DNA of 5,220 nucleotides from a virus (taxonomy: Duplodnaviria > Heunggongvirae > Uroviricota > Caudoviricetes). Every line of letters begins with the position of its first letter. The first letter of the stretch is position 1. The notes under the pieces were generated by a model. That model worked only from the letters and a program-made list of their open reading frames with translations. It was not told the DNA's origin and did not search any database. Both the position numbers and the translations under genes were made by a program. The stretch is from IMG/VR virus record IMGVR_UViG_2778261344_000016, positions 1-5,220 of that record; one strand, written 5' to 3'. Positions 2,283 through 5,220 of the stretch are shown piece after piece.

Positions 2283-2310
2283 AAAACCCGGCTCGGTGGC
2301 CGGGTTTTTC
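2283..2310 (-). terminator. t_imm-like intrinsic terminator ending the cI-cassette transcript
   Basis: Hairpin CCCGGC / CGGTG-type loop / GCCGGG at 2287..2304, flanked by A-runs and T-runs on both sides. It is at the position of the lambda terminator that follows rexB. Confidence 0.7.
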
Positions 2311-3086
2311 TAGGCTACCAGAGACTCAATCCAAGAGTCTCTGGTATGGAATGGCAACACTCGTGCGGTATCATTAAATAGTAGTGATAGTTGCTGTAGC
2401 TCAGGTGTTAACCCATCGCTGTCAACTATTACAAATCTATTGTTTATGTCAGGAACGACCTGACTTAAGTCAACAATCTTCCCAACTGTTGAGTGGGCAG
2501 TATTCCATCCCTTACTGCTGGCAAGGCTTACCGTAAACCCGCGTTTTGGTGGTATTAGTCGAGACTCATTCCTTAGCGTTAACGGAACAGTAATGTTATG
2601 CCCACTAATACCTTTCACTTTTTCCTTTAAAGCTAGTCGCTTCCCAAGCCCTGCTGATTTTAAGTAGCTGATTACACATTTTTCGAACTTATCGTCTTTG
2701 ATCTCAGCATACCAATCAGCAGTTTGGGCGGATGCAAGAATCCCACCACGAATAACATTTGCAGTTACCTGTCCAACGGACGACTCATCTGCCCACGCAG
2801 ATATCTCTCCAGAGTCATTTAATGAAATTCCTTGCGAAGCGAGCGATGACCTGATTAGATCAATTTTCTTTTTAGTCAGGTGGATGCCGCGTGATTCAAT
2901 ATTCATCAATGTATCGCAGTAGTCTGTAACCCTATACTGACCACTCATCTCTTGAACGAATACACTTATCTGCTCACAATCATCGTAGTATGTGAAGGGA
3001 CTAATAACGCGCAGCAACGTGTCGCTCATTGGGTGGCATTCAAACCCGAGCTTAGATATGACTGTTGAACACGTTACATTTCCCAT
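2310..3086 (-). CDS. Hypothetical protein, 258 aa; distal gene of the two-gene cassette in the rexAB slot
   Basis: Long ORF with no internal stops and no long hydrophobic segment. Its ATG (3086..3084) overlaps the 3' end of the upstream ORF by 13 nt, and it has only a weak Shine-Dalgarno, consistent with translational coupling. No family recognised. Not RexB, which is about 144 aa and membrane-embedded. Confidence 0.65.
   Translation of the reverse strand: MGNVTCSTVISKLGFECHPMSDTLLRVISPFTYYDDCEQISVFVQEMSGQYRVTDYCDTLMNIESRGIHLTKKKIDLIRSSLASQGISLNDSGEISAWADESSVGQVTANVIRGGILASAQTADWYAEIKDDKFEKCVISYLKSAGLGKRLALKEKVKGISGHNITVPLTLRNESRLIPPKRGFTVSLASSKGWNTAHSTVGKIVDLSQVVPDINNRFVIVDSDGLTPELQQLSLLFNDTARVLPFHTRDSWIESLVA
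2316..2346. repeat. Perfect 12-bp inverted repeat with 7-nt loop inside the last codons of the 258-aa ORF
   Basis: TACCAGAGACTC (2316..2327) / AATCCAA loop / GAGTCTCTGGTA (2335..2346). It lies just upstream of t_imm on the minus-strand transcript. Confidence 0.6.
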
Positions 3087-3616
3087 GATAGCTGACCTGA
3101 TTTATCTTGATTAGGTAAAGGTGGGCTGCCTTCATATATGATATTAAGCGCCTCGCAAAAATAATTCCAGTAGCCAAAAAAATCATCTGGCTTGATGTTC
3201 GTTTCAAGCTTAAGTGCAATTTCTTCCCCAGCTGATTCGAAGTACATGTGATAGTGAGGACCTCGAGCCACCTCAACAAAATCTGGATGGTTCACTATAG
3301 ATTTATTACGGTGTGGCTTGTTATCCGCAGGGTACGGGTCAAGCGCGTAAATGCGCCTGTCATGAAGAAACATCACAAATGAAATCTTCACTATATCCAC
3401 CCCTTCAACGATAGGAGGACGCCAGTGAAGCATAAATTTTATGCCTGTGATTGGGTTGCCAATTTCATCAAAAGCTTTGAGATCCAATTTAAACCAGATT
3501 GGGGTTCGTCCCTCACTTCCGGTCCATGTAACTCCGCTAAAAGTTACTTTTTTCAAGCGAGTAATAGCTTGGTCAACCTCTTTCTGGGTAGGCTTAAAGT
3601 CGCCTTTTTTAGCCAC
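3074..3616 (-). CDS. Hypothetical protein, 180 aa; proximal gene of the two-gene cassette in the rexAB slot
   Basis: ORF begins with GTG at 3616..3614 (an in-frame stop lies three codons upstream) with a GGTGA Shine-Dalgarno-like element about 9 nt upstream. It starts 46 bp after the cI stop with no intervening terminator, so it is probably co-transcribed with cI from PRM. No family recognised. Not RexA, which is about 279 aa. Confidence 0.65.
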   Translation of the reverse strand: MAKKGDFKPTQKEVDQAITRLKKVTFSGVTWTGSEGRTPIWFKLDLKAFDEIGNPITGIKFMLHWRPPIVEGVDIVKISFVMFLHDRRIYALDPYPADNKPHRNKSIVNHPDFVEVARGPHYHMYFESAGEEIALKLETNIKPDDFFGYWNYFCEALNIIYEGSPPLPNQDKSGQLSWEM

Positions 3617-3662
3617 TGATTCGTATCACCATGAAAGTTATTGTTAATACCTGTGCTTCTTG

Positions 3663-4379
<717 letters not shown>

Positions 4380-4476: not shown

Positions 4477-4677
4477 ATGGAACAACGCATAACCCTGAAA
4501 GATTATGCAATGCGCTTTGGTCAAACCAAGACGGCTAAAGATCTCGGTGTATATCAAAGCGCGATCAACAAGGCCCTTCATGCAGGCCGAAAGATTTTTT
4601 TAACTATAAACGCTGATGGAAGCGTTTATGCGGAAGAAATAAAGCCCTTCCCAAGCAACAAAAAAACAACTGCATAA
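4477..4677 (+). CDS. cro: Cro repressor, 66 aa
   Basis: Translation [66 protein letters not shown] is near-identical to lambda Cro as I recall it. TAAGGAGG Shine-Dalgarno at 4466..4473. Confidence 0.95.
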
Positions 4678-4783: not shown

Positions 4784-5002
4784 ATGGAACAAACAAGTTA
4801 CAGCAAACTATCACAGCGCGACGTTGATCGCGCAGAAACAGATTTACTTATCAACCTGTCAACGCTTACCCAGCGCGGTCTGGCAAAGATGATTGGCTGT
4901 CATGAATCGAAGATAAGCAGAACGGACTGGAGGTTTATTGCTTCGGTCCTGTGTGCTTTTGGAATGGCATCAGACATCAGTCCGATTAGCAGGGCTTTTT
5001 GA
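4784..5002 (+). CDS. CII-like transcriptional activator, apparently truncated at 72 aa by the IS insertion
   Basis: It occupies the cII position after cro and nutR. The segment DLLINLSTLTQRGLAKMIGCHESKISRTDWR resembles the CII helix-turn-helix region (lambda CII has ...GVDKSQISRWKRDW...). The ORF stops at a TGA (5000..5002) that is the first three bases of the IS terminal repeat, and CII-family proteins are usually about 90-100 aa. Confidence 0.55.
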   Translation: MEQTSYSKLSQRDVDRAETDLLINLSTLTQRGLAKMIGCHESKISRTDWRFIASVLCAFGMASDISPISRAF

Positions 5003-5047
5003 ACCGCCCCGGGTTTCCTGGAGTGAACCGCCCCGGGTTTCCTGGAG
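5000..5047. repeat. Two exact tandem copies of a 24-bp IS terminal repeat
   Basis: TGAACCGCCCCGGGTTTCCTGGAG at 5000..5023 is repeated exactly at 5024..5047. The sequence begins with TG and resembles the terminal inverted repeats of the IS629/IS1203/IS3411 group as I recall them. Confidence 0.7.
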
Positions 5048-5065
5048 AGTATTTTATCTGTGAAC

Positions 5066-5220
5066 TCAGGCTGCCAGATCATTATTTCCGATGGAAGCAT
5101 AATAAGCTTTTTCTGCTTCTGCCGGAGGAATATGGCCCAGCCTTTCCAGCAATCGTCGATTGTTATACCAGTCCACCCACGTGAGTGTGGCCAGTTCCAC
5201 TTCTGCACGGTTTTTCCAGC
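5066..5220 (-). CDS. IS3-family transposase (OrfB, DDE integrase core), C-terminal fragment
   Basis: Reverse-strand translation ends ...WKNRAEVELATLTWVDWYNNRRLLERLGHIPPAEAEKAYYASIGNNDLAA with the stop at 5068..5066. This is a typical IS3-family OrfB C-terminus (WVDWYNN.RL....G..PP.E.E motif). It is in a different frame from the listed ORF 4900..5208. Confidence 0.75.
   Translation of the reverse strand, partial: WKNRAEVELATLTWVDWYNNRRLLERLGHIPPAEAEKAYYASIGNNDLAA

Follow-up and report, generated by a model that had tools for sequence, protein, structure and literature searches.

In Shiga-toxin-producing E. coli, small-scale diversification of the genome is driven mainly by IS629. Deletions that start beside its copies have been described in enterohaemorrhagic strains (Ooka 2009; Kusumoto 2011). 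As summarized in two sources, these deletions depend on the transposase and are enhanced by IEE, and the model of Kusumoto 2011 is a 'sloppy' strand transfer of one IS629 end (bioRxiv 10.1101/2023.06.07.543989; PMC9943667). According to the same sources the deletions take away anything between a few nucleotides and over 40 kb, start exactly at the tip of the element and have prophages as their usual victims.

A second related behavior is the targeting of resident IS ends. It has been described for IS911 (Loot 2002; Loot 2004; Turlan 2004; Rousseau 2008) and, as IR-targeting, for IS30 (PMC9333248, PMC7986276). In the account of these last two sources, the reaction is taken to be a single-strand transfer whose branched intermediate is resolved by the host (RecG). 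The product is an IRL-IRR junction with the tips face to face, 2-3 nt outside the tip. In vitro, the IS911 transposase can also bring right ends in direct orientation into synapsis, and it bends both of them (Pouget et al. 2006, PMC1636345). Only pairing was seen in that study; its authors expected no productive reaction, and earlier IS911 work had not detected strand transfer between ends in direct repeat.

Here we describe a head-to-tail doubled IS629 terminus in a decayed prophage of E. coli and place the event that produced it with the IS629-adjacent deletions and with the known targeting by IS3-family transposases of their own ends. As in the IS629-adjacent deletions, the IS is intact, the deletion runs from its exact tip and the flanks are collinear with an undeleted relative. 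Unlike them, the far endpoint is the inner edge of another IS629 repeat and not arbitrary DNA. As in the IS911 and IS30 reactions, the target is a resident repeat of the IS's own kind, at a rate far in excess of chance. The product, however, is not tip-to-tip. It is head-to-tail, lies 13-44 nt inside the repeat and mostly joins ends of the same type; the transferred-strand joint of the present locus and most of its IS629 relatives falls at 22-26 nt inside the repeat, whereas IS911 and IS30, in the accessible accounts, attack outside the tip. The direct-orientation pairing of right ends seen with the IS911 transposase is the pairing that this joint needs. Where pairing alone was observed in vitro, the genomic scars may represent rare in vivo products.

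Nested IS insertions and solo repeat remnants likewise leave an IS fragment beside a complete IS of the same kind. They differ from the structures described here, in which the fragment is always the tip-proximal piece, in direct orientation and abutting the tip, the breakpoints cluster and the rest of the old copy is absent. In the accessible literature, to which Kusumoto 2011 itself did not belong, we found no description of a class of deletion endpoints with a head-to-tail doubled end. The head-to-tail joint at the inner edge, its recurrence across phyla and its breakpoint hot spots are likewise undescribed there, some key primary papers lying outside that literature. We regard the scar as modestly novel and the underlying IS3-family behavior as known.

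The doubled terminus and the intact IS629

The window, that is the whole stretch of 5,220 nt that was analyzed, matches E. coli O103:H2 strain 129 (NZ_AP038976.1) at 100% identity. It covers the immunity/early region of a lambdoid prophage, with N, a two-gene cassette, the repressor, cro and cII. Coordinates prefixed L001 refer to the longer record of the same locus. The features that bear on the junction are as follows.

3663-4376, minus strand: S24/HTH repressor
4477-4677: cro
4784-5002, plus strand: truncated cII, 72 of ~99 codons (from the list of open reading frames)
5000-5023, no strand assigned: outer 24-mer, equal to positions 1-24 of the IS629 right terminal repeat (IRR, GGGTTT type), outside the intact IS
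5024-5047, no strand assigned: inner 24-mer, the genuine IRR end of the intact element, exactly 1310 bp to the tip of the left terminal repeat (IRL)
5024-5220, minus strand: right-end 197 bp of IS629, the element running 1113 bp past the window
5066-5220, minus strand: 3' end of the transposase (orfB part of OrfAB), located by tblastn of OrfB; the CDS occupies L001 6367-7580

The exact tandem duplication noted in the preliminary description is present. The sequence TGAACCGCCCCGGGTTTCCTGGAG occupies both 5000-5023 and 5024-5047, its two copies following each other head to tail with 100% identity. Tandem Repeats Finder reports a single array at 5000-5047 with a period of 24, 2.0 copies, 100% matches and a score of 96. 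The 24-mer was found, with up to 3 mismatches, in 0 of 200 dinucleotide-preserving shuffles of the 12.5-kb locus. The junction reads ...GCAGGGCTTTT / TGAACCGCCCCGGGTTTCCTGGAG / TGAACCGCCCCGGGTTTCCTGGAG / AGTATTTTATCTG..., and past the inner copy come the IS interior and then the 3' end of orfB. The borders (CTTTT/TGAA..GGAG/TGAA..GGAG/AGTA) are without microhomology at either joint, and the joint sits exactly at the IS tip (TG...).

The framing of the observation needs one correction: of the two copies, the inner one alone is part of the canonical 1310-bp element (L001 6325-7634). Because that element is already complete from 5024, the outer 24-mer lies outside it. The outer copy has the orientation of the IRR of the adjoining intact IS629 and is of the IRR type rather than the IRL type (24/24 matches to the adjacent IRR vs 21/24 to the intact IS629's IRL). 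Comparison with the other end of the element and with another copy, also suggested in the preliminary description, found single termini in both cases: the IRL of the intact IS629 (TGAACCGCCCCGGAAATCCTGGAG) and the IRR of a neighboring IS629. Tandem ends are rare in general and occur at ~0.03% of IS629 places in complete E. coli genomes.

The intact element is a complete IS629/IS1203-type member of the IS3 family, 1310 bp long, from 5024 of the window to L001 7634. The orfB product scores 315 bits against the NCBIfam model NF033516 (IS3 family transposase; cut-off 160) and orfA matches profile positions 1-86 of the same model. RefSeq annotates an IS3 family transposase with programmed frameshift together with a frameshift pseudoknot feature. 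The annotation of sister copies reads 'IS3-like element IS1203 family transposase'; IS1203 is an isoform of IS629. The element has the traits of the family: a DDE transposase from orfA/orfB, a length of ~1.3 kb and imperfect TG...CA terminal repeats. Its IRL and IRR match at 22 of the first 25 positions, with mismatches at 14-16. The 3-4 bp target-site duplication typical of the family is absent around it (CTTTT on one side, GCCTA on the other). It is a bona fide IS3-family member, though not a simple insertion.

The prophage and its missing interval

The point of insertion within cII had been called ambiguous. The homology to cII in fact ends at 4999, where intact alleles read on (...CTTTT|AA). 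The truncated gene takes its stop codon, TGA, from the first bases of the outer 24-mer. Its product matches Pfam Phage_CII with 85 bits over profile positions 1-71 of 91, and RefSeq labels it 'CII family transcriptional regulator, incomplete, missing C-terminus'.

The other side of the element does not fit a simple insertion in cII, as first assumed. Beyond the left IS end lies not cII but the gene for the terminase large subunit (terminase A), which lacks its first ~119 nt, and the prophage has lost ~13 kb. In the intact relative PhiR12_1 the cII and terminase A breakpoints are collinear and ~13.4 kb apart. Between them lie O, P, ren, the nin genes, Q, the lysis genes and Nu1. With cII and terminase A as flanks and the interval gone, the structure is that of an IS next to a deletion. 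What is left of the prophage is crippled. It retains the repressor, cro and a truncated cII and has lost its genes for replication, late control, lysis and the start of packaging. The terminase gene (L001 7636-9443) is not only startless but also annotated as frameshifted with an internal stop, so packaging is disabled in more than one way.

Presence of the junction in independent assemblies

An assembly artefact had been offered as one explanation of the doubling. A contig that reached 24 nt into the repeat and was concatenated with the contig of the repeat itself would yield precisely a partial end followed by a full end, with identical copies. One IS3-family tandem end with a 111-nt remnant (L203, 126-249) has an N exactly at the joint; it is probably a contig-joining artefact and was discarded. 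Some metagenome cases have remnants as long as common k-mer sizes (21, 33, 39), and among the metagenome cases with identical copies some could be joining artefacts. Non-identical remnants, which are found at other loci, cannot arise from overlap artefacts.

The present locus was traced through the 72-aa truncated CII, which is a unique marker of the junction and is encoded in many public assemblies (42 index blocks). The identical cII/24/24/IS sequence occurs in GCA_002016275.1, in GCA_001191035.1 and in a Logan contig of run SRR32982923. Among the matches listed, at least 3 contigs extend beyond the cII stop, and 12 more similar places exist; the other contigs listed carry intact cII genes that end at the contig edge. 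In the Logan contig, which was assembled from raw reads, the 48-nt junction is internal. As the same junction is present in three independent assemblies, the duplication is in the DNA and is not the product of one assembly, and for this locus we hold an artefact to be refuted, its probability being negligible. Annotators may take tandem ends as a warning: a doubled IS terminus is not necessarily an assembly error, nor the IS beside it necessarily a simple insertion.

Other IS629 loci with tandem ends

A set of 5,426 complete E. coli genomes was searched with a 60-nt query whose full length can be matched by a tandem alone. It recovered six further loci at unrelated sites, with remnants of 24, 24, 26, 26, 26 and 22 nt. 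A pattern scan unbiased as to spacing added a tandem end in E. ruysiae with a 26-nt remnant. Among viral contigs, no tandem end was found at spacings of 13-43; at spacings of 44-133 there was one IS629 case, with a 44-nt remnant, and one probable scaffold artefact. Beyond strain 129 there are thus eight IS629 loci of the same layout. In complete E. coli genomes 7 tandem events were seen, against at most 0.07-0.5 expected under random insertion (P <= 9e-7). The IRR tip of the intact element is involved in 9 of 9 IS629 events (p = 0.004).

The remnants are not always copies of the adjacent end. At two loci (L006 and L007) the remnant has GGTTTT and the adjacent IS end GGGTTT. GGTTTT is a common IRR variant, present at >=99% identity in 1,079 records. 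At a third locus (L008) the remnant is of the IRL type. These three remnants are therefore not local copies, and slippage is ruled out there.

The nine IS629 remnants (L001, L003-L008, L033 and L170) are all of even length: 22, 24, 24, 24, 26, 26, 26, 26 and 44 nt. Eight of the nine end after a G of the motif CTGGAGAG, which may reflect a cutting preference or chance. The L008 locus, on a plasmid of E. coli SY033, has a further peculiarity. Its positions 2501-3934 hold the 22-nt left-end repeat, a complete reversed IS629 and a 102-nt left-end fragment oriented like the left end of the complete copy, an arrangement that implies at least two further IS629 ends.

A before-and-after pair in O145

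For one of the tandem-ended loci, O145 relatives show the state before the remnant appeared. In RM9154-C1 (26-nt remnant) the left junction is unique, and the IRL/essD junction is common to 19 O145 genomes. The resident IS629 at intD'|IS|essD' in RM8988-C1 and RM11626-C1 is identical to that of RM9154-C1 over all 1310 bp. In RM9154-C1 alone, 232 bp of intD' beside the IRR tip are swapped for 26 nt of a GGTTTT-type IRR. No position of the resident IS has changed, and the DNA next to its tip has been replaced by the terminus of another copy. Since only DNA outside the tip was altered, the intact element stayed in place. A second IS629 would have landed 232 bp away in the same orientation, and the tip of the resident would have been joined to position 26 of its repeat with the loss of everything between, the body of the second copy included. 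Like the loss between cII and terminase, this case conforms to the pattern of IS629-adjacent deletions.

Another O145 strain, RM9872 (L221, 789-820), has a different irregularity. Its resident right end carries the left-end AA at positions 15-16 (GGGAAT) and continues as right-end interior; sister strains read GGGTTT at the same locus. This end may have arisen by conversion between the two ends of the element.

Flanks and target-site duplications

In every complete E. coli case the flanks of the tandem-ended element are non-contiguous and lie in different genes. For three of the pairs, reference phages have the two genes in collinear order: cII/terminase, antirepressor/tailspike, and intD/essD of DLP12. 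The fourth pair, an OLD-family gene and a transporter gene, is likewise non-matching. Target duplications surround 0 of 7 tandem-ended IS629 copies vs 23 of 41 ordinary copies taken as controls from viral contigs (Fisher one-sided p = 0.0065). With other IS3 members added, the count is 1 of 20 tandem-ended elements (p = 7e-5).

These data bear on a 1334-bp variant of IS629 with a doubled right end that would be mobile as a unit by its outer tip and would have entered cII with the tandem already formed. Such a unit could account for remnant lengths that recur across sites (24 nt three times and 26 nt four times among the IS629 loci, 33 nt in both L019 and L042, 24 nt in both L054 and L062), and a remnant of 24-26 nt holds essentially an entire terminal repeat. 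It should, however, leave a target duplication around remnant and IS together, and this is found in none of the seven. The flanking genes also differ in each complete case, the O145 element was intact and in place before its remnant appeared, and the outer and inner ends of L006 and L007 are different variants. That L006 and L007 share the GGTTTT remnant is explained by how common this variant is. We have rejected movement as a unit and consider such a variant highly improbable.

At ordinary IS629 insertions in viral contigs (L083-L202) a C stands at -5 outside the IRR tip in 65 of 115 distinct flanks, and the targets do not resemble the terminal repeat. IS629 thus apparently prefers certain target sites, a bias that the joints of the tandem ends are without.

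Tandem ends of IS3-family elements in other bacteria

The 13-nt tip TGAACCGCCCCGG is common to IS3-family elements of Actinomycetota, Burkholderiaceae, Sphingomonas, Moraxellaceae and others. Searching for pairs of it in direct orientation at spacings of 13-43 nt gave 74 loci. These were dereplicated, micro-tandem repeats were removed and an IS3 transposase downstream was required (tblastn). Transposase orientation in GC-rich loci was taken from tblastn, calls based on open reading frames being unreliable there. This left 45 distinct events, including seven E. coli loci, with 38 coming from unbiased scans. The tandem-end layout is present at ~36 IS3-family loci in other phyla. Right ends are involved in ~13 of the IS3-family events and left ends in ~12.

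The breakpoints are non-uniform. Positions 16-17 nt (12 events), 22 nt (8 events) and 24-26 nt (7 events) dominate, and the clustering is significant by the largest bin (P = 9e-4) and by the sum of squares (P < 2e-5). Where the two ends of the element can be distinguished, 13 remnants are of the type of the adjacent end and 3 match the opposite end perfectly. Two of the loci, L018 and L030, have remnants that match the opposite end at 30/30 and 28/28 positions.

A local tandem duplication, whether it came from replication slippage or from unequal exchange involving sister copies of a single IS, would need no second IS copy and would be expected to give identical repeats. The two 24-mers of the present locus are identical, and the remnant equals the adjacent end in 30 of the 45 validated events. 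The remnants of L006, L007, L008, L018 and L030 are, however, unlike the adjacent end and must derive from a different copy or end. The traits of slippage, border homology and copies identical at birth, are not found: microhomology is absent from the borders, and the duplicated unit starts exactly at the IS tip in every case. Slippage also predicts that target duplications are retained, and none is present. Nor does it account for the simultaneous loss of 232 bp in the O145 case. We therefore disfavor a local duplication as quite improbable. At the present locus, where the 24-mers are identical, its exclusion rests on the sister loci.

Origin of the doubled end

We favor, with moderate confidence, an origin by fusion of one IS629's tip to a second copy, at the inner edge of the latter's terminal repeat, with deletion of the interval between them. 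A second IS629 would once have stood in cII at codon 72, oriented as the present element. The present IS629 would originally have been located downstream, in the terminase large-subunit gene that its left end still adjoins. The 3' tip of its IRR would have been covalently joined to position 24 of the IRR of the cII copy. The body of the cII copy would have been lost together with the ~13 kb that hold O, P, ren, nin, Q, lysis, Nu1 and the start of terminase A. In this best reading the doubled end is the sole trace of the second IS629 formerly in cII. The preliminary description had listed an aberrant junction event and the solo end of an earlier insertion as separate options. Each comes close, the first for the joint and the second for the source of the outer copy, while the simple cII insertion assumed with them falls away. 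Had imprecise excision left a solo end that was targeted again afterwards, isolated 24-mers would be its counterparts; there were 0 of these among 125 occurrences in viral contigs.

The chemistry proposed is the normal first step of IS3-family transposition, in which one strand would be cleaved at one end and transferred to the same strand. The recipient would be the directly repeated terminal repeat of the other copy instead of the element's own opposite end. The product would be one strand with the deletion, which replication would fix. That the joint was made by the transposase is suggested by the exact tip, the lack of microhomology, the strong bias to genuine terminal repeats and the clustering of breakpoints. 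The step agrees with the published transposase-dependent deletions beside IS629 and with the pairing and bending of right ends by the IS911 transposase. Against it stand the tip-to-tip geometry of the IS911 and IS30 products and the failure of earlier IS911 work to detect strand transfer between directly repeated ends. Within the repeat, the inner edge is possibly a preferred target, perhaps because the DNA there is bound and bent by transposase.

Neither the cII/IRR junction nor the IRL/terminase junction was found in any other of the 5,426 complete E. coli genomes. With no single-copy ancestor of strain 129 among those genomes, we infer the two-copy precursor, and with it the former IS629 in cII of the ancestor of strain 129, by analogy with O145.

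The same product could have been formed in two steps. A circle of IS629 would be pasted into the repeat of a resident cII IS629 at position 24, and homologous recombination with a neighboring IS629 in terminase A would then remove the body of the old copy and the interval. At the level of sequence, the one-step joint and a nested insertion followed by recombination look alike. Direct repeats of 1.3 kb recombine readily, and the identity of the final IS to the resident in O145 is as expected if the incoming copy derived from the resident. Two-ended IS629 insertions that follow IR-like sequence also exist. In L208 (1698-1713, in pckA, with the target duplication GAG) and L210 (1701-1719, in an IS4, with ATG), simple IS629 insertions with 3-bp duplications directly follow native sequence that mimics terminal-repeat positions ~10-26 in the tandem-end orientation (for example, CCAGGTTTCCGGAGAG vs CCGGGTTTCCTGGAGAG). 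The pckA match has, as a rough estimate, p ~0.03 after allowing for the number of sites. A preference of IS629 for IR-like targets was, however, not found over 115 distinct flanks of ordinary insertions (p = 0.63), so the pckA and IS4 cases are only suggestive.

Three further observations weigh against the two-step route. Collapse with the adjacent nested partner should be its commonest outcome and would keep the old target duplication, yet 0 of 7 have one. A contiguous nested junction (IRL tip followed by the IS from position ~22 onward) was sought with a query that reached 80% coverage in 61 genomes; among the 25 matches listed there was none, all of them being two-piece. Finally, two steps need three IS copies or events, and the one-step joint needs two. 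We consider the two-step route unlikely, though it is the strongest competitor of the direct joint between two copies.

If the direct joint is taken beyond IS629, the tandem ends could be the footprint of a general, hitherto undescribed side reaction of the IS3 family. The cleaved tip would attack the transferred strand of another copy at ~16-17, 22 or 24-26 nt and so directly make IS-to-IS deletions. We put this forward tentatively. If true, the breakpoint spectrum would reveal how the transposase-end complex is built in different phyla, and every remnant would testify to an IS copy now gone. Should the breakpoints reflect the grip of the transposase on the second end, they would offer a cheap comparative readout of transpososome geometry, and fixed breakpoints would predict a specific reaction testable on plasmids. 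A recognizable scar of deletions that end in another IS copy also aids the reconstruction of prophage decay, and should be of use to students of IS elements and of prophage decay alike.

A variant in which the recipient repeat is bound in reverse, a 'flipped partner', so that the attack at the usual fixed distance would strike its inner side, was considered and set aside. The strand and orientation fit, but the distances do not suit a binding site centered beyond position ~12, and the model is speculation only.

Other features of the prophage

A second IS629 lies at L001 1-44, ~1.3 kb upstream of the start of the window, where it truncates an exonuclease gene. Its transposase protein is identical, its orientation is inverted and its single IRR faces the window. 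Two inward-facing IS629 right ends thus bracket the surviving early region from exo' to cII' (~6.3 kb).

The two-gene cassette (2310-3616, minus strand) encodes a 258-aa DUF1828 protein and a 180-aa DUF6978-like protein, whose genes overlap by 13 nt. It sits between N and the repressor, the position of rexAB in lambda. Both proteins show weak similarity to the two components of PDC-M24, a candidate defense system of PADLOC (B: E = 6e-7; A: E = 4e-4). The cassette may be a prophage-encoded exclusion or defense module.
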